Below are positions 3,223 through 49,878 of a DNA stretch of 64,000 nucleotides, piece after piece. The notes beneath the pieces are model-generated. The model saw only the letters and a program-made list of their open reading frames with translations. It was not told the DNA's origin and searched no databases. The translations under genes and the position numbers were made by a program. The stretch lies in assembly GCF_003334255.1 (NCBI RefSeq), contig NZ_QOWU01000024.1. The stretch is one strand, 5' to 3'. This stretch comes from Escherichia coli (GTDB lineage Bacteria > Pseudomonadota > Gammaproteobacteria > Enterobacterales > Enterobacteriaceae). Within the stretch, counting starts at the first letter, position 1; each line of letters begins with the position of its first letter.

Positions 3223-3390
3223 TGTTTTATTCCTGCATTTTTGCCACGAATTGCAACTGTCGGGCATGGTCGTCATCAACACGACGCATCCCGCTACCGC
3301 GAAAACCTTTGATCCTGAAAGACACGCAGTGCAGTTGGTTAATTAATGTCCGCGCTTCCCACGGCGCGCCATTACGCTATTGCAAATGCA

Positions 3391-3418
3391 AATAGTTATC
3401 AATAATATTATCAATATA
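3391..3418. promoter_or_regulatory. Fur box in the divergent fepA / fes-ybdZ-entF promoter region
   Basis: aatagttatcaataatattatcaatat resembles the Fur consensus GATAATGATAATCATTATC; location between divergent iron-regulated genes. Confidence 0.6.
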
Positions 3419-3464
3419 TTTCTGCAATCAATGAAAAATTGCACAGTAAACATGGGGTTATGGT

Positions 3465-4667
3465 GTGACGGCGTTAAAAGTAGGAAGTGAGAGCTGGTGG
3501 CAGTCGAAACATGGCCCGGAATGGCAGCGTCTGAATGACGAAATGTTTGAGGTCACTTTCTGGTGGCGTGATCCCCAAGGTTCTGAAGAATACTCGACGA
3601 TAAAGCGCGTATGGGTCTACATCACTGGTGTGACCGATCACCATCAGAACAGCCAGCCCCAGTCGATGCAGCGAATTGCAGGCACTAACGTCTGGCAGTG
3701 GACGACACAACTCAATGCCAACTGGCGCGGCAGCTACTGCTTTATTCCCACCGAACGCGATGACATTTTTTCTGTACCATCCCCCGATCGCCTCGAATTG
3801 CGCGAAGGCTGGCGAAAACTATTACCCCAGGCGATAGCCGATCCGCTGAACCTACAAAGCTGGAAAGGCGGGCGAGGGCACGCTGTTTCTGCACTCGAAA
3901 TGCCGCAAGCGCCTCTGCAACCGGGATGGGATTGTCCGCAAGCGCCAGAAATACCTGCCAAAGAAATTATCTGGAAAAGTGAACGGTTGAAAAAGTCACG
4001 GCGTGTATGGATTTTTACCACCGGCGATGCAACAGCAGAAGAACGCCCGCTGGCAGTTTTGCTCGATGGCGAATTTTGGGCGCAAAGTATGCCCGTCTGG
4101 CCAGTGCTGACTTCGCTGACCCATCGTCAGCAACTTCCTCCCGCCGTGTATGTGTTGATCGACGCTATCGACACCACGCACCGCGCCCACGAACTGCCGT
4201 GTAATGCGGATTTCTGGCTCGCAGTACAGCAAGAGTTATTACCCCTGGTGAAAGCTATTGCCCCTTTTAGCGATCGTGCCGATCGCACCGTGGTTGCCGG
4301 GCAGAGTTTTGGTGGGTTTTCCGCGCTGTATGCCGGACTGCACTGGCCTGAACGCTTTGGCTGTGTATTAAGCCAGTCAGGATCGTACTGGTGGCCGCAT
4401 CGGGGCGGGCAGCAAGAGGGCGTGTTACTTGAAAAGCTAAAAGCTGGTGAAGTTAGCGCCGAAGGTCTGCGCATTGTGCTGGAAGCGGGTATTCGCGAGC
4501 CGATGATCATGCGGGCCAATCAGGCGCTGTATGCGCAATTACACCCCATAAAAGAATCCATTTTCTGGCGTCAGGTTGACGGCGGACATGATGCGCTTTG
4601 TTGGCGCGGTGGCTTGATGCAGGGGCTAATCGACCTCTGGCAACCACTTTTCCATGACAGGAGTTGA
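3465..4667 (+). CDS. fes: Enterochelin (ferric enterobactin) esterase
   Basis: 400 aa ORF with GTG start; translation MTALKVGSESWWQSKHGPEWQRL... recognised as Fes; GQSFGG serine-hydrolase motif present. A shorter downstream start is possible. Confidence 0.9.
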   Translation: MTALKVGSESWWQSKHGPEWQRLNDEMFEVTFWWRDPQGSEEYSTIKRVWVYITGVTDHHQNSQPQSMQRIAGTNVWQWTTQLNANWRGSYCFIPTERDDIFSVPSPDRLELREGWRKLLPQAIADPLNLQSWKGGRGHAVSALEMPQAPLQPGWDCPQAPEIPAKEIIWKSERLKKSRRVWIFTTGDATAEERPLAVLLDGEFWAQSMPVWPVLTSLTHRQQLPPAVYVLIDAIDTTHRAHELPCNADFWLAVQQELLPLVKAIAPFSDRADRTVVAGQSFGGFSALYAGLHWPERFGCVLSQSGSYWWPHRGGQQEGVLLEKLKAGEVSAEGLRIVLEAGIREPMIMRANQALYAQLHPIKESIFWRQVDGGHDALCWRGGLMQGLIDLWQPLFHDRS

Positions 4668-4669
4668 AT

Positions 4670-4888
4670 ATGGCATTCAGTAATCCCTTCGATGATCCGC
4701 AGGGAGCGTTTTACATATTGCGCAATGCGCAGGGGCAATTCAGTCTGTGGCCGCAACAATGCGTCTTACCGGCAGGCTGGGACATTGTGTGTCAGCCGCA
4801 GTCACAGGCGTCCTGCCAGCAGTGGCTGGAAGCCCACTGGCGTACTCTGACACCGACGAATTTTACCCAGTTGCAGGAGGCACAATGA
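4670..4888 (+). CDS. ybdZ: MbtH-like protein, accessory to EntF adenylation domain
   Basis: Translation MAFSNPFDDPQGAFYILRNAQGQFSLWPQQCVLPAGWDIV... (72 aa) is MbtH-like; begins 3 nt after the fes stop and overlaps the entF start by 4 nt. Confidence 0.9.
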   Translation: MAFSNPFDDPQGAFYILRNAQGQFSLWPQQCVLPAGWDIVCQPQSQASCQQWLEAHWRTLTPTNFTQLQEAQ

Positions 4889-7800
4889 GCCAGCATTTAC
4901 CTTTGGTCGCCGCACAGCCCGGCATCTGGATGGCAGAAAAACTGTCAGAATTACCCTCCGCCTGGAGCGTGGCGCATTACGTTGAGTTAACCGGAGAGGT
5001 TGATTCGCCATTACTGGCCCGCGCGGTGGTTGCCGGACTAGCGCAAGCAGATACGCTGCGGATGCGTTTTACGGAAGATAACGGCGAAGTCTGGCAGTGG
5101 GTCGATGATGCGCTGACGTTCGAACTGCCAGAAATTATCGACCTACGAACCAACATTGATCCGCACGGTACTGCGCAGGCATTAATGCAGGCGGATTTGC
5201 AACAAGATCTGCGCGTCGATAGCGGTAAACCACTGGTCTTTCATCAGCTGATACAGGTGGCGGATAACCGCTGGTACTGGTATCAGCGTTATCACCATTT
5301 GCTGGTCGATGGCTTTAGTTTCCCGGCCATTACCCGCCAGATCGCCAATATTTACTGCACATGGCTGCGTGGCGAACCAACGCCTGCTTCGCCATTTACG
5401 CCTTTCGCTGATGTAGTGGAAGAGTACCAGCAATACCGCGAAAGCGAAGCCTGGCAGCGTGATGCGGCATTCTGGGCAGAACAGCGTCGTCAACTGCCGC
5501 CGCCCGCGTCACTTTCTCCGGCACCTTTACCGGGGCGCAGCGCCTCGGCAGATATTCTGCGCCTGAAACTGGAATTTACCGACGGGGAATTCCGCCAGCT
5601 GGCTACGCAACTTTCAGGTGTGCAGCGTACCGATTTAGCCCTTGCGCTGGCAGCCTTGTGGCTGGGGCGATTGTGCAATCGTATGGACTACGCCGCCGGA
5701 TTTATCTTTATGCGTCGACTGGGCTCGGCGGCGCTGACGGCTACCGGACCCGTGCTCAACGTTTTGCCGTTGGGTATTCACATTGCGGCGCAAGAAACGC
5801 TGCCGGAACTGGCAACCCGACTGGCAGCACAACTGAAAAAAATGCGTCGTCATCAACGTTACGATGCCGAACAAATTGTCCGTGACAGCGGGCGAGCGGC
5901 AGGTGATGAACCGCTGTTTGGTCCGGTACTCAATATCAAGGTATTTGATTACCAACTGGATATTCCTGATGTTCAGGCGCAAACCCATACCCTGGCAACC
6001 GGTCCGGTTAATGACCTTGAACTGGCCCTGTTCCCGGATGTACACGGTGATTTGAGTATTGAGATCCTCGCCAATAAACAGCGTTACGATGAGCCAACGT
6101 TAATCCAGCATGCTGAACGCCTGAAAATGCTGATTGCCCAGTTCGCCGCGGATCCGGCGCTGTTGTGCGGCGATGTCGATATTATGCTGCCAGGTGAGTA
6201 TGCGCAGCTGGCGCAGCTCAACGCCACTCAGGTTGAGATTCCAGAAACCACGCTTAGCGCGCTGGTGGCAGAACAAGCGGCAAAAACACCGGATGCTCCG
6301 GCGCTGGCAGATGCGCGTTACCTGTTCAGCTATCGGGAAATGCGCGAGCAGGTGGTGGCGCTGGCGAATCTGCTGCGTGAGCGCGGCGTTAAACCAGGGG
6401 ACAGCGTGGCGGTGGCACTACCGCGCTCGGTCTTTTTGACCCTGGCACTCCATGCGATAGTTGAAGCTGGAGCGGCCTGGCTACCGCTGGATACCGGCTA
6501 TCCGGACGATCGCCTGAAAATGATGCTGGAAGATGCGCGTCCGTCGCTGTTAATTACCACCGACGATCAACTGCCGCGCTTTAGCGATGTTCCCAATTTA
6601 ACAAGCCTTTGCTATAACGCCCCGCTTACACCGCAGGGCAGTGCGCCGCTGCAACTTTCACAACCGCATCACACGGCTTATATCATCTTTACCTCTGGCT
6701 CCACCGGCAGGCCGAAAGGGGTAATGGTCGGGCAGACGGCTATCGTCAACCGCCTGCTTTGGATGCAAAATCATTATCCGCTTACAGGCGAAGATGTCGT
6801 TGCCCAAAAAACGCCGTGCAGTTTTGATGTCTCGGTGTGGGAGTTTTTCTGGCCGTTTATCGCAGGGGCAAAACTGGTGATGGCTGAACCGGAAGCGCAC
6901 CGCGACCCGCTCGCTATGCAGCAATTCTTTGCCGAATATGGCGTAACGACCACGCACTTTGTGCCGTCGATGCTGGCGGCATTTGTTGCCTCGCTGACGC
7001 CGCAAACCGCTCGCCAGAGTTGCGCGACGTTGAAACAGGTTTTCTGTAGTGGTGAGGCCTTACCGGCTGATTTATGCCGCGAATGGCAACAGTTAACTGG
7101 CGCGCCGTTGCATAATCTATATGGCCCGACGGAAGCGGCGGTAGATGTCAGCTGGTATCCGGCTTTTGGCGAGGAACTGGCACAGGTGCGCGGCAGCAGT
7201 GTGCCGATTGGTTATCCGGTATGGAATACGGGTCTGCGTATTCTTGATGCGATGATGCATCCGGTGCCGCCGGGTGTGGCGGGTGATCTCTATCTCACTG
7301 GCATTCAACTGGCGCAGGGCTATCTCGGACGCCCCGATCTGACCGCCAGCCGCTTTATTGCCGATCCTTTTGCCCCAGGTGAACGGATGTACCGTACCGG
7401 AGACGTTGCCCGCTGGCTGGATAACGGCGCGGTGGAGTACCTCGGGCGCAGTGATGATCAGCTAAAAATTCGCGGGCAGCGTATCGAACTGGGCGAAATC
7501 GATCGCGTGATGCAGGCGCTGCCGGATGTCGAACAAGCCGTTACCCACGCCTGTGTGATTAACCAGGCGGCTGCCACCGGTGGTGATGCGCGTCAATTGG
7601 TGGGCTATCTGGTGTCGCAATCGGGCCTGCCGTTGGATACCAGCGCATTGCAGGCGCAGCTTCGTGAAACATTGCCACCACATATGGTACCGGTGGTTCT
7701 GCTGCAACTTCCACAGTTACCACTTAGCGCCAACGGCAAGCTGGATCGCAAAGCCTTACCGTTGCCTGAACTGAAGGCACAAGCGCCAGGGCGTGCGCCG

Positions 7801-29301: not shown

Positions 29302-29672
29302 TAATTTGTCCTTTTCAGTCAGTGCAAAAGTCGAGTAAAAGGCATAACCTATCACTGTCATAGGTAAGAGCTTAGATCAGGTGATTGCCCTTTGTTTATG
29401 AGGGTGTTGTAATCCATGTCGTTGTTGCATTTGTAAGGGCAACACCTCAGCCTGCAGGCAGGCACTGAAGATACCAAAGGGTAGTTCAGATTACACGGTC
29501 ACCTGGAAAGGGGGCCATTTTACTTTTTATCGCCGCTGGCGGTGCAAAGTTCACAAAGTTGTCTTACGAAGGTTGTAAGGTAAAACTTATCGATTTGATA
29601 ATGGAAACGCATTAGCCGAATCGGCAAAAATTGGTTACCTTACATCTCATCGAAAACACGGAGGAAGTATAG

Positions 29673-34695: not shown

Positions 34696-34924
34696 TTTTA
34701 CTCCATGTCGTCGGTGCTGCGAGTGTCGCAGATAAACATACCCAAAAGAAAACCCTCACCGTCAGGCGGCGAGGGTTTAACTCACATGATGATACTGACT
34801 GTTGCTCACTCTTTGAAGTGATTTGCGTCACATTCAGGGAATTCCTCAATGCAGCGCATTATGTATAAATCTTAATCGCCTTGGTTTATGGAAGACGAAT
34901 TAGCGTGTTTTGTAAATCAGATGA

Positions 34925-41525: not shown

Positions 41526-42584
41526 TCATGCGGGGGTCTTTTGACGAGCTGCCGCGTCCTGGCGGGAGTGCTCAAGCAGGTTCTGCAAATAATGCAGCGT
41601 GACTGCAGGGACCAGCGGCGCGATAGCCGTGAGATCGTTTTTCGCCAGCAGTTGACGTACCCGGGAAGCGGATATCGGCATCTCCTGGTAACGCAGCCGC
41701 TCAATTTCAACCAGTTCGATGGGCGGTGCGGAGATAGTCGGCGTTTCCAGCCAGTAGCGCATATCCTGGTTGTACTGGGCGGTAACGCGACAAAAGGGTT
41801 CAGTACCGACAAAGCGGTGAGTTACACCCAGCGCGGGAGCGAGGTACTGACGGAAAATCTTCAGATCAATTTCGGTGTAACAATGGTTAATGACGCTCTG
41901 TTCTTTAATGAAGTAGCAAGGGAACGTAGCGCGGGAGATGATGTATTCGGAGCCACGATGCACAGTCAGGCGTGGAATATCGGCGGTGCCTTTTAACACC
42001 AAATCCAGCCGGTCTTCATAGGGGAAGCGTGAAGAATCTTCTTTGACTAAAAACAGATGCAACCAGTCGCACTGTGCCGCAGCCTGTTGAATCAGATAAC
42101 GGTGACCATTCGTAAAGGGATTGGCGTTCATCACAATGCAGCCAATCTTGTTCCCTGGATGACGAAATTTTTTCAGCGATTCGGCATAGCGTTTCAGTCG
42201 CGTGGCGCTGTTTTCCATCAGCACCATCACGCCGGGTACGCTGGTCAGCGTGGAAAAACCGCACTGGCGGAACAGCGCCTCGTATTCGGTTTTGGTATAA
42301 ATAAACAGATGCGTGCTGTGCCGCTCATAGGCGAGGTTTATCAATTCAGTGGCTAATGTCAGCGCCAGTCCTTCACCGCGGACGGATTCACTGATAGCAA
42401 CGCATTTAATAATATTTCCGGCAATTCCACCGCACGCGATAAGCTTTTCATCGCGGGTTACGGTAATAAATACTTCGACTGTGGTGTCAACGCTCAAATC
42501 ATTTTCATGCAGGAATTGGGCGATTTCCGCCATTTTTTTATTTTCTGAACGTTTTACGCGGGTGAAAATATCATTGCCGAACAT
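41526..42584 (-). CDS. citC: [Citrate (pro-3S)-lyase] ligase
   Basis: Translation from MFGNDIFTRVKRSENKKMAEIAQF (352 aa); track ORF extends 29 codons upstream into the AT-rich control region. Confidence 0.9.
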   Translation of the reverse strand: MFGNDIFTRVKRSENKKMAEIAQFLHENDLSVDTTVEVFITVTRDEKLIACGGIAGNIIKCVAISESVRGEGLALTLATELINLAYERHSTHLFIYTKTEYEALFRQCGFSTLTSVPGVMVLMENSATRLKRYAESLKKFRHPGNKIGCIVMNANPFTNGHRYLIQQAAAQCDWLHLFLVKEDSSRFPYEDRLDLVLKGTADIPRLTVHRGSEYIISRATFPCYFIKEQSVINHCYTEIDLKIFRQYLAPALGVTHRFVGTEPFCRVTAQYNQDMRYWLETPTISAPPIELVEIERLRYQEMPISASRVRQLLAKNDLTAIAPLVPAVTLHYLQNLLEHSRQDAAARQKTPA

Positions 42585-42962
42585 AATAAATAGTATCCTG
42601 AAGGTGCATGTTGTTATCGATTTGCAACGAATGTTGTTCAATGTTGCAAACTGATAACCTTTTATTTTCACTTGGGAGAAAGGGGGTGATCGAGGTATAT
42701 CTTTTTCTCCTTTCGCTATACATCCTAAGGAGTATTTCGGCGTGAAATTTTGATTTATTTCACATAGAGTTAGTGGTTTTTTATTTATTTAATGATTTTA
42801 AGTTTTTTAATTAATGTAATTACGAAATGACTCGCAGGTTTAAGTGATTTAATTGATTTAATGAATAAAATTTGCCACGATCATAATTAATATCTATGTA
42901 TTTTGATTCAACATTTTAATTACATCCGTCAAAGAGGCTCGGGACAACCCGCAAGGAAAACA
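42585..42962. promoter_or_regulatory. Divergent citCDEFXGT / citAB control region (expected DpiA/CitB target region)
   Basis: AT-rich 378 bp between divergent operons; tandem direct repeat TGATTTAAT x2 at 42845-42862; inverted repeat GTGAAAT-N9-ATTTCAC at 42742-42764. Confidence 0.5.
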
Positions 42963-44621
42963 ATGTTGCAGCTTAACGAGAATAAACAGTTTGCATTTTT
43001 CCAAAGACTGGCATTTCCGCTGCGTATCTTTTTGCTGATTCTGGTGTTCTCAATATTTGTCATTGCAGCCCTGGCGCAATATTTTACGGCCAGTTTTGAG
43101 GACTATTTAACGCTTCATGTACGCGACATGGCAATGAATCAGGCGAAAATTATTGCCTCCAATGACAGTGTCATCTCTGCGGTGAAAACGCGTGACTACA
43201 AACGGCTGGCGACCATCGCTAACAAATTACAAAGAGATACCGATTTTGATTATGTGGTGATTGGGGACCGGCACTCGATCCGCCTTTACCATCCTAATCC
43301 GGAGAAAATTGGTTATCCTATGCAGTTCACCAAACAGGGCGCGCTGGAGAAAGGGGAGAGCTACTTCATTACCGGGAAAGGGTCAATGGGGATGGCGATG
43401 CGCGCCAAAACGCCAATCTTTGATGACGATGGAAAAGTCATCGGCGTGGTGTCGATTGGCTACCTGGTGAGTAAAATCGATAGCTGGCGGGCTGAGTTTT
43501 TATTACCGATGGCAGGTGTGTTTGTCGTGCTGTTAGGGATTCTGATGTTGCTGTCGTGGTTCCTGGCCGCGCATATCCGTCGGCAGATGATGGGCATGGA
43601 GCCAAAGCAAATCGCACGCGTGGTCCGTCAGCAAGAGGCGCTGTTTAGTTCGGTTTATGAAGGGCTGATTGCGGTGGATCCGCATGGTTACATTACCGCC
43701 ATCAATCGTAACGCAAGAAAGATGCTGGGGCTGAGTTCCCCCGGACGGCAATGGTTGGGTAAACCCATTGTTGAAGTGGTCAGGCCCGCCGATTTCTTTA
43801 CCGAACAGATTGATGAAAAACGTCAGGATGTGGTGGCGAACTTTAACGGTCTGAGCGTTATTGCCAACCGGGAAGCTATTCGTTCAGGTGATGATTTGCT
43901 GGGGGCCATTATCAGCTTTCGTAGTAAAGACGAAATTTCCACCCTCAATGCGCAACTGACGCAAATAAAACAATACGTTGAGAGCCTTCGTACATTGCGA
44001 CACGAGCATCTCAATTGGATGTCGACGCTCAATGGTCTGTTGCAGATGAAAGAGTATGATCGCGTGCTGGCGATGGTGCAGGGGGAGTCTCAGGCCCAGC
44101 AACAGCTTATTGACAGCCTGCGCGAGGCGTTTGCCGATCGCCAGGTGGCGGGGCTGCTTTTTGGTAAAGTGCAGCGCGCCCGGGAACTGGGGCTAAAAAT
44201 GATCATTGTCCCCGGTAGCCAGCTTTCGCAACTGCCGCCAGGACTGGATAGCACCGAGTTTGCAGCCATTGTGGGCAATTTACTTGATAACGCCTTCGAA
44301 GCCAGCCTGCGTAGCGATGAAGGAAACAAGATCGTTGAATTATTCCTCAGCGATGAAGGCGATGATGTGGTGATTGAAGTCGCCGATCAGGGCTGCGGCG
44401 TTCCAGAGTCTCTACGAGACAAAATATTTGAGCAGGGGGTCAGTACGCGTGCTGACGAGCCCGGTGAACATGGCATTGGGTTGTACTTGATTGCCAGCTA
44501 CGTAACGCGCTGCGGTGGTGTTATCACTCTCGAAGATAATGATCCCTGCGGTACCTTATTTTCAATCTATATTCCGAAAGTGAAACCTAATGACAGCTCC
44601 ATTAACCCTATTGATCGTTGA
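42963..44621 (+). CDS. citA: Citrate-sensing sensor histidine kinase
   Basis: Translation from MLQLNENKQFAFFQRLAFPLRIFLL (552 aa); two TM segments flanking a periplasmic domain, H-box LRHEHLN, ATPase G-boxes; also named dpiB. Confidence 0.93.
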   Translation: MLQLNENKQFAFFQRLAFPLRIFLLILVFSIFVIAALAQYFTASFEDYLTLHVRDMAMNQAKIIASNDSVISAVKTRDYKRLATIANKLQRDTDFDYVVIGDRHSIRLYHPNPEKIGYPMQFTKQGALEKGESYFITGKGSMGMAMRAKTPIFDDDGKVIGVVSIGYLVSKIDSWRAEFLLPMAGVFVVLLGILMLLSWFLAAHIRRQMMGMEPKQIARVVRQQEALFSSVYEGLIAVDPHGYITAINRNARKMLGLSSPGRQWLGKPIVEVVRPADFFTEQIDEKRQDVVANFNGLSVIANREAIRSGDDLLGAIISFRSKDEISTLNAQLTQIKQYVESLRTLRHEHLNWMSTLNGLLQMKEYDRVLAMVQGESQAQQQLIDSLREAFADRQVAGLLFGKVQRARELGLKMIIVPGSQLSQLPPGLDSTEFAAIVGNLLDNAFEASLRSDEGNKIVELFLSDEGDDVVIEVADQGCGVPESLRDKIFEQGVSTRADEPGEHGIGLYLIASYVTRCGGVITLEDNDPCGTLFSIYIPKVKPNDSSINPIDR

Positions 44622-47284: not shown

Positions 47285-47845
47285 ATGAACGTGAGTAAAT
47301 ATGTCGCTATCTTTTCCTTTGTTTTTATTCAGTTAATCAGCGTTGGTAAAGTTTTTGCTAACGCAGATGAGTGGATGACAACGTTTAGAGAAAATATTGC
47401 ACAAACCTGGCAACAGCCTGAACATTATGATTTATATATTCCTGCCATCACCTGGCATGCACGTTTCGCTTACGACAAAGAAAAAACCGATCGCTATAAC
47501 GAGCGACCGTGGGGTGGCGGTTTTGGCCTGTCGCGTTGGGATGAAAAAGGAAACTGGCATGGCCTGTATGCCATGGCATTTAAGGACTCGTGGAACAAAT
47601 GGGAACCGATTGCCGGATACGGATGGGAAAGTACCTGGCGACCGCTGGCGGATGAAAATTTTCATTTAGGTCTGGGATTCACCGCTGGCGTAACGGCACG
47701 CGATAACTGGAATTACATCCCTCTCCCGGTTCTACTGCCATTGGCCTCCGTGGGTTATGGCCCAGTGACTTTTCAGATGACCTACATTCCGGGTACCTAC
47801 AACAATGGCAATGTGTACTTTGCCTGGATGCGCTTTCAGTTTTGA
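47285..47845 (+). CDS. pagP: Lipid A palmitoyltransferase (outer membrane beta-barrel)
   Basis: Translation from [30 protein letters not shown] (186 aa); ends in the aromatic C-terminus RFQF. Confidence 0.93.
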
Positions 47846-48019
47846 GACAAATGAAGTTTTAGTAACTTCTTTAAAATCAATAGCTAAAATAAGTAACATC
47901 AAAAATAACGCGACTTTTATCACTTTTTAGTAAAGTTACACTGGACAAAGCGTACCACAATTGGTGTACTGGTAACCGACACAGCATTTGTGTCTATTTT
48001 TCATGTAAAGGTAATTTTG

Positions 48020-48229
48020 ATGTCTAAGATTAAAGGTAACGTTAAGTGGTTTAATGAGTCCAAAGGATTCGGTTTCATTACTCCGGAAGACGGCAGCAAA
48101 GACGTGTTCGTACACTTCTCTGCAATCCAGACTAATGGTTTTAAAACTCTTGCTGAAGGTCAGCGCGTAGAGTTCGAAATCACTAACGGTGCCAAAGGCC
48201 CTTCTGCTGCAAACGTAATCGCTCTGTAA
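48020..48229 (+). CDS. cspE: Cold shock-like protein E
   Basis: Translation [37 protein letters not shown]... (69 aa); RNP motifs KGFGFI and VFVHF. Confidence 0.97.
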
Positions 48230-48249
48230 GATACGTCAGCAAGAATTCA

Positions 48250-48277
48250 AAACCCGCTTAATCAGCGGGTTTTTTTT
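48250..48277. terminator. Bidirectional rho-independent terminator between cspE and crcB
   Basis: aaaacccgcttaatcagcgggtttttttt: stem cccgc/gcggg flanked by A-run and T-run. Confidence 0.8.
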
Positions 48278-48282
48278 GGTCT

Positions 48283-48666
48283 TTAGTGTGCGGTTGAGGC
48301 CGAAAACAGCCAGAATGCCAGTGCGGTCATGGCAAAAGACCCCAGAAGGTTGACGAAAACGTTCAGTAATGCCCAGCCAAAGCGGCCCTCTTGTAACAAA
48401 AACACCACTTCTGCCGAAAATGTTGAGAAGGTTGTTAGACCGCCACAAAATCCGGTGGTGATTAATACTTTCCACACTGGATCAATGTTCGTCATCCTGC
48501 TGAACCATGCGAATCCTATTCCTATGATGAATGCCCCAATCAGGTTTGCTGTCAGCGTCCCCAACGGAATCGCCTGATGCAGTGGGTTAAATCGCATACT
48601 TAACAGCCATCTCGCCACGCTTCCCGTACCACCGCCAATAAAAACTGCTAAAAGAAGTTGTAACAC
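48283..48666 (-). CDS. crcB: Fluoride channel (Fluc family)
   Basis: 127 aa [27 protein letters not shown]... recognised as CrcB/FluC. Confidence 0.93.
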
Positions 48667-48752
48667 TGCAAAATCCTGCTATTTGATTTGTATGAGTGAT
48701 AAGTGTAACGCCGAATAATCGTCGTTGGCGAATTTTACGACTCTGACAGGAG

Positions 48753-49546
48753 GTGGCAATGCTGGTTGCCGCAGGACAGTTTGCTGTTACATCTGTGTGG
48801 GAAAAGAACGCTGAGATTTGTGCCTCGTTGATGGCGCAGGCGGCGGAAAACGACGTATCGCTGTTTGTCCTGCCGGAAGCATTGCTGGCGCGCGATGATC
48901 ATGATGCAGATCTATCGGTTAAATCAGCACAGCTGCTGGAAGGCGAATTCCTCGGACTTTACGGCGAGAAAGTAAACGTAACATGATGACGACAATTCTG
49001 ACGATTCATGTTCCTTCAACGCCGGGGCGCGCATGGAATATGCTGGTGGCACTTCAGGCAGGAAACATCGTCGCCCGTTATGCCAAACTGCATCTCTATG
49101 ATGCATTTGCCATTCAGGAATCACGCCGTGTTGATGCTGGTAATGAAATCGCTCCGTTACTGGAGGTGGAAGGGATGAAGGTCGGTCTGATGACCTGTTA
49201 TGACTTACGCTTTCCAGAGCTGGCGCTGGCACAGGCATTACAGGGAGCTGAAATCCTGGTACTTCCTGCCGCCTGGGTTCGCGGGCCGCTCAAAGAGCAT
49301 CACTGGTCAACGTTGCTTGCCGCTCGTGCGCTGGATACCACCTGTTATATGGTGGCGGCGGGGGAGTGCGGGAACAAAAATATCGGTCAAAGCCGGATTA
49401 TAGATCCCTTTGGCGTCACCATTGCGGCAGCGTCAGAAATGCCTGCACTCATTATGGCGGAAGTGACGCCCGAACGTGTGCGTCAGGTGCGCGCGCAACT
49501 GCCCGTCTTAAACAACCGTCGCTTTGCGCCGCCGCAATTATTATGA
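48753..49546 (+). pseudogene. ybeM: C-N hydrolase (nitrilase superfamily) amidase gene split by a frameshift into 77-aa and 187-aa ORFs
   Basis: ORF 48753-48986 ends at TGA 48984-48986; the continuation ([12 protein letters not shown]... through [11 protein letters not shown]... and the conserved Cys region) lies in a different frame from 48983; the two pieces together resemble one ~260 aa C-N hydrolase. Confidence 0.75.
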
Positions 49547-49674: not shown

Positions 49675-49878
49675 ATGGGTGAGATTAGTATTACCAAACT
49701 GCTGGTAGTTGCGGCGCTGGTCGTTCTGCTGTTTGGGACTAAGAAGTTACGTACGCTGGGCGGAGACCTTGGAGCGGCCATTAAAGGGTTCAAGAAGGCG
49801 ATGAATGATGACGATGCTGCGGCGAAAAAAGGCGCAGACGTTGATCTTCAGGCTGAAAAGCTCTCTCATAAAGAGTGA
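49675..49878 (+). CDS. tatE: Sec-independent protein translocase subunit (TatA paralogue)
   Basis: 67 aa [43 protein letters not shown]... Confidence 0.95.

Follow-up and report, generated by a model that had tools for sequence, protein, structure and literature searches.

The window, by which we mean the whole 64-kb stretch of DNA that was analyzed, carries between crcB and tatE two neighbouring open reading frames (ORFs) which a preliminary description had taken for a disrupted ybeM gene. The ORF list of the window gives them exactly as described, on the plus strand and in different frames (phases 0 and 2): a 77-aa ORF with a GTG start (ORF1, 48753..48986) and a 187-aa ORF with an ATG start (ORF2, 48983..49546). 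The two ORFs overlap in the tetranucleotide ATGA at 48983–48986, and as the frame of ORF2 is open from 48923, just after an upstream TAA, both frames can be read over 64 nt (48923–48986). RefSeq annotates identical DNA in strains 300709, JME67, an MG1655 derivative and G1/2 as 'deaminated glutathione amidase', a pseudogene flagged 'frameshifted', and starts it at the ATG at 48759, which shortens ORF1 to 75 aa. The GTG at 48753 was therefore ruled out as the ybeM start; the ATG used by RefSeq is the one preceded by AGGAGG. Beyond crcB and tatE, pagP and cspE are found upstream of ybeM and lipA downstream. The RefSeq annotation, these neighbours and the profile matches given below all agree with the earlier naming of the gene as ybeM. 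The coordinates of the features are collected in Table 1, together with the RNA families detected elsewhere in the window.

Table 1. Features of the ybeM locus and RNA families in the window, in order of position
Feature	Position	Strand	Basis or remark
ES036 sRNA	866–907	−	Rfam gathering threshold, 40.5 bits
STnc70 sRNA	29435–29528	+	Rfam gathering threshold, 42.7 bits
rnk leader	34741–34849	−	Rfam gathering threshold, 125 bits
cspA thermoregulator model over cspE leader and gene	47835–48277	+	Rfam gathering threshold, 124 bits
crcB	48283..48666	−	Neighbour of ybeM
Shine-Dalgarno AGGAGG	48748–48753	+	Sequence reading; 5 nt upstream of ATG 48759
ybeM pseudogene (deaminated glutathione amidase, CN_hydrolase family), one base short of complete	48759..49546	+	RefSeq annotation of identical DNA; profile scores of the repaired translation
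N-terminal fragment ORF, 75 aa, 'YbeH'-type	48759..48986	+	Residues 1–66 authentic; catalytic Glu40 at 48876–48878
1-bp deletion site, in the Arg codon CGT (codon 67 of the intact gene)	48957..48958	+	DNA alignments with intact alleles
C-terminal fragment ORF, 187 aa, 'YbeM' of K-12	48983..49546	+	Authentic from 48958; Lys110 at 49085–49087, Cys147 at 49196–49198
tatE	49675..49878	+	Neighbour of ybeM

Profile searches assigned the two ORFs to successive parts of one protein. ORF1 matched positions 2–65 of the NCBIfam model NF033621 (deaminated glutathione amidase, 260 positions) with an E value of 4e-24 (85.3 bits), and ORF2 matched positions 76–260 with an E value of 3e-103 (344.6 bits). Because these matches follow one another in order and without overlap on a single family model, chance is excluded as their cause. 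Both fragments as encoded fall short of the curated cut-off of the model (355 bits), whereas the intact allele of strain YPE3, which equals the translation of the window once repaired, scored 452 bits over the whole model; with the fragments below the cut-off and the repaired protein above it, the locus is classed as a pseudogene of the NF033621 family and not as a functional member. Likewise, residues 3–245 of the intact allele correspond to positions 2–255 of the 256 positions of PF00795 (CN_hydrolase; E 9.4e-41), a span that the ORF1 and ORF2 fragments of the window cover only jointly. The suggestion that the pair together resemble one nitrilase-superfamily amidase of ~260 aa was thus borne out by the colinear matches and by a repaired protein of 262 aa, and the possibility that the ORFs encode unrelated proteins can be set aside, as they are halves of one.

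The best solved relative of the intact protein is the Caenorhabditis elegans NitFhit protein (1ems, E 3e-29), followed by yeast Nit2 and mouse Nit2, and the alignments to these Nit-type structures run unbroken across the frameshift region. Glu40, Lys110 and Cys147 of YbeM align (positions counted by hand) with Glu54, Lys127 and Cys169 of NitFhit 1ems, which we take to be the catalytic triad of that enzyme. With a full-length PF00795 match and the triad in place, the repaired protein belongs to the nitrilase superfamily. All three triad codons are present in the window, although they are split over two frames, Glu40 lying in ORF1 and both Lys110 and Cys147 in ORF2. YbeM therefore shares the CN_hydrolase fold family and the Glu-Lys-Cys triad with the Nit1-type eukaryotic enzymes (NitFhit 1ems, yeast Nit2 4h5u, mammalian Nit1), but these are distant homologues (E 3e-29 and weaker), and the copy in the window appears to be inactivated.

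The names given in databases (NCBI, UniProt) suggest that intact E. coli YbeM functions as a deaminated glutathione amidase; one source names the repaired 262-aa sequence 'Deaminated glutathione amidase ... YBEM_ECO57'. The enzyme name reportedly originates with Peracchi et al. in 2017, whose work is said to present Nit1 as an amidase that repairs metabolites by acting on deaminated glutathione. One paper, in which Peracchi et al. are cited, reports mammalian Nit1 and its yeast orthologue (the NIT2 gene) as deaminated-glutathione amidases (PMC5714238).

Alignment against intact ybeM alleles, which had been proposed as the way to place the indel, located it at a single base. Over the 794 nt of 48753–49546, one gap is the sole difference between the window and YPE3, for which RefSeq gives an intact 262-aa CDS (WP_000959109.1). 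YPE3 has GGACGTTTAC at the site and the window has the deleted form GGACTTTAC; that is, intact alleles read GGAC-G-TTTAC where the window reads GGAC-TTTAC, and the G missing between 48957 and 48958 belongs to codon 67. The same G is found in CFT073, MS20655 and JNE21-003, all of which differ from the window elsewhere. Intact versions in related genomes, which the preliminary description had asserted, are accordingly found in YPE3, CFT073 and MS20655. When the G was re-inserted at 48957/48958, a single 262-aa ORF resulted, with a translation identical to the YPE3 protein and with the start codon and neighbours of the intact gene.

The lesion thus lies at 48957/48958, 26 nt upstream of the ATGA overlap, and not at the boundary between the ORFs; the join formerly placed at 48983–48986 is correct for the overlap but not for the lesion itself. 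Owing to the shift, ORF1 ends in nine residues, LYGEKVNVT (48957–48983), that are out of frame and replace RLRRESKRN, and they are followed by the stop codon TGA at 48984–48986. The ATGATG found at 48983 encodes Met75-Met76 of the intact protein. The locus combines what is looked for in a frameshift pseudogene, namely single-ORF orthologues, an indel that explains the change of frame, and a lesion that is real.

The frequency of the deleted allele was determined in 5,425 complete E. coli genomes with a 70-nt query centred on the site (48923–48992). The exact deleted 70-mer was present in 860 of them (about 16%, or about one in six). A further 4,563 genomes matched it at 95–99%, and every one of the 49 records sampled evenly from this band spans 71 nt, the extra base being present. 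Each non-carrier allele that was fetched forms a single ORF with an intact CDS annotation, and ybeM is flagged 'frameshifted' by RefSeq in all five carrier records fetched, one of which (UTME-9) is a low-quality assembly. If all genomes with the K-12 haplotype have the deletion, the carriers divide into ~365 of K-12 type and roughly 495 others, the latter representing about 10% of the remaining genomes. Carriers include derivatives of K-12 MG1655 as well as isolates from human stool (Mozambique), the faeces of healthy humans (Germany), other faeces, river water, a farm environment and human clinical sources. The lesion had been called strain-specific, and this has to be abandoned: the identical deletion occurs in at least 860 of the 5,425 genomes, so that it is a common allele of E. 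coli, both overall and outside the K-12-type genomes, and no peculiarity of K-12 or of a single strain.

These counts also bear on whether the base is missing merely through a sequencing or assembly error, the gene being intact. No assembly error is commoner than a single-base indel, and the poor UTME-9 assembly has frameshifts in every gene of the region, but the deletion recurs identically in 860 independent complete assemblies, among them several K-12 sequences and W3110 entries. The site (GGAC|TTTAC) moreover lies outside any homopolymer, so that a platform-specific indel error offers no explanation. We regard an error at this position as scarcely credible. As for UTME-9 itself (NZ_CP157110.1), pagP, cspE, crcB, ybeM, tatE and lipA are all annotated as frameshifted over 3 kb; this almost certainly reflects an indel-rich assembly and not biology, and pseudogene counts drawn from such records call for caution.

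The preliminary description had left open whether the locus is a pseudogene or a gene that needs programmed frameshifting. The first option is favoured by the 1-bp deletion and the RefSeq flag, while the second found no slippery heptamer and no structure to rest on. Within 48923–48986, a programmed −1 ribosomal frameshift (or slippage during transcription) would yield a near-full-length enzyme, and a −1 (or +2) shift anywhere in this interval would indeed join both frames, a layout that the window shares with dnaX and the IS1/IS3 transposases (programmed −1), where overlapping same-strand frames can likewise be joined by a −1 shift. Unlike these systems, however, the window has neither a slippery heptamer nor a stimulatory structure nor a conserved two-frame layout. 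Scanning 48923–48986 retrieved neither an X XXY YYZ heptamer nor a run of four or more identical bases, the sole slip site in the overlap being a weak single-codon one, A AAC at 48974. For the RNA of 48960–49060 (101 nt) the folding energy is −21 kcal/mol, less stable than the average of its shuffles (−24.1 kcal/mol; z +0.99), and 171 of the 200 shuffles are at least as stable. The counts given above indicate that most genomes have a single frame here, and, since the sequence is identical to intact YPE3 apart from the missing G, no dedicated recoding signal has evolved. Programmed frameshifting is accordingly held to be extremely improbable. Slippage by +1 (prfB-like) on the CTT TAC found where the base was lost was also considered and rejected as being in the wrong direction, as the frames need −1 or +2.

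The ATGA at 48983–48986, where the stop codon of ORF1 and the ATG of ORF2 share bases, is a classic arrangement for translational coupling. It could in principle permit re-initiation and the production of a 187-aa fragment, and the two ORFs might then be translated separately, to form an active split amidase or to give the 187-aa fragment a function of its own. The persistence of the deleted allele in roughly 495 non-K-12 genomes would be in keeping with this reading. On the other hand, ATGATG already encodes Met75-Met76 in intact alleles, which makes the overlap an incidental result of the frameshift, and reading of the sequence before 48983 revealed no good Shine-Dalgarno. A split product would furthermore be without the nine residues RLRRESKRN, and ORF2 alone both stays below the NF033621 cut-off (344.6 against 355 bits) and is without Glu40. 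Finally, K-12 later gained two nonsynonymous changes beside Glu40, as expected if constraint was relaxed. Taken with the arguments on both sides, a functional split gene seems very unlikely.

The two changes in K-12 emerged from a base-by-base comparison of MG1655 with the window over 3,070 bp, in which these were the only differences. Both are T>C in K-12, at 48856 (V33A) and at 48868 (V37A), 12 nt apart, nonsynonymous, and located in the N-terminal fragment next to the catalytic Glu40. The bit-score deficit of K-12 relative to exact matches over 20 kb is consistent with about two mismatches. The differences at 48856 and 48868 rule out that the window is K-12. Over 20 kb it matches the isolates G1/2, G6/7 and G8 from human faeces without a difference, and on this sequence evidence it belongs to a close relative of K-12 and not to K-12 itself. 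The haplotype with both changes occurs in 365 genomes, those sampled being laboratory strains.

Both codons encode Val in the window and in intact alleles, which is the ancestral state, and V33A and V37A must for that reason postdate the shared frameshift. They would fit relaxed constraint, though two sites are few, and one clustered mutation event may instead have produced both. Among intact alleles pN/pS is 0.06–0.15, which indicates purifying selection on ybeM where it is intact. Since nothing else separates the allele of the window from the intact one of YPE3, the deletion arose recently on this background, and a single origin is probable. The ancestral state is a single ORF, because E. 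coli as distant as CFT073 and the eukaryotic Nit homologues align straight through the site; the alternative that the two-ORF layout is ancestral does not hold, orthologues in other lineages being single-ORF.

With high confidence, therefore, though judging from sequence comparison, we interpret the region as E. coli ybeM, a gene for a 262-aa nitrilase-superfamily amidase that was probably inactivated by the loss of one G at 48957/48958, the broken form being a young inherited allele. By database naming, the intact product would be a Nit1-type metabolite-repair enzyme. Ribosomes starting at the ATG at 48759 would translate 66 right codons and nine wrong ones before stopping at the TGA at 48984–48986, and the predicted 75-aa product would hold about a quarter of the fold and, of the three catalytic residues, Glu40 only. 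Lys110, Cys147 and most of the fold are encoded in the other frame. With the triad split over two frames, no active enzyme is expected from the locus, and amidase activity has presumably been lost. The deleted allele is common to a set of close relatives that includes K-12 and many natural isolates.

In the strain of the window the broken allele is otherwise undecayed, and it is present in the non-K-12 genomes counted above. It may not be neutral debris: it could have been maintained since loss of the amidase was advantageous in the lineage, or ATGA-coupled fragments or rare −1 slippage could keep some activity. We consider this unlikely and give it only a slim chance. The pseudogene reading is also the one under which the locus is on record. 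The ybeM frameshift pseudogene is already known for the K-12 lineage and its relatives, and the K-12 ybeM/ybeH pseudogene resembles that of the window in its crcB-tatE locus, in the 1-bp deletion at the same position and in an identical 187-aa ORF2, but differs from it in having the additional V33A (48856) and V37A (48868) in the N-terminal fragment. For the exact 187-aa sequence the entry reads 'PUTATIVE PSEUDOGENE: Putative protein YbeM [Escherichia coli K-12]' (UniProt name 'Putative protein YbeM'), and for the K-12 form of the 75-aa ORF it reads 'Putative protein YbeH' (UniProt name).

As the re-discovery of an annotated pseudogene, the finding in itself matters little. Studies of glutathione damage repair based on K-12 would, however, be carried out without this Nit1-type enzyme, which most E. 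coli have. The ybeM of MG1655, which two papers term a pseudogene, has served in them as a neutral chromosomal site for the insertion of tetA/tetR (PMC4788846, PMC7242477). In CFT073, where ybeM is intact, an NsrR ChIP signal was reported at ybeM and the gene was down under nitric-oxide stress (PMC5320621); NsrR binding was reported also in K-12, where ybeM is broken (PMC5320621). The promoter and regulatory input of ybeM thus seem to persist at the pseudogene.

Several minor observations were made in and around the gene. A 56-aa out-of-frame ORF lies inside ybeM at 49008–49178 (plus strand), in the frame of ORF1 and seven codons past its stop. In a UTI89 library screen with pBAD24, a 29-bp ybeM fragment encoding the opening peptide of this 56-aa ORF led to filamentation (PMC6206680). 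The crcB-ybeM divergent intergenic region (48667–48758) gave no Rfam match at the gathering threshold for a fluoride riboswitch. A sigma-70-like site for crcB, TTGCCA-16-TAAAAT, on the minus strand at 48759..48732, overlaps the ybeM start and its Shine-Dalgarno; it is a consensus match only, and shuffles also give one such site.

Over the 64-kb window as a whole, no tRNA genes were found. Insertion sequences were noted in the corresponding stretches of three other strains. In JNE21-003 (E. coli O166:H15), an IS21-like ISEc62 (istA/istB) lies near the 3' end of ybeM (3362–5328 of its stretch), and the gene has been disrupted independently, with a 241-aa CDS body and the last 99 nt left as a separate remnant. 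An IS1 insertion cuts ybeF in YPE3 (4955–5902 of its stretch), and in G1/2 IS1 insertions cut a hypothetical gene and the ybeR-djlC region (1467–2514 and 42144–43656 of its stretch).
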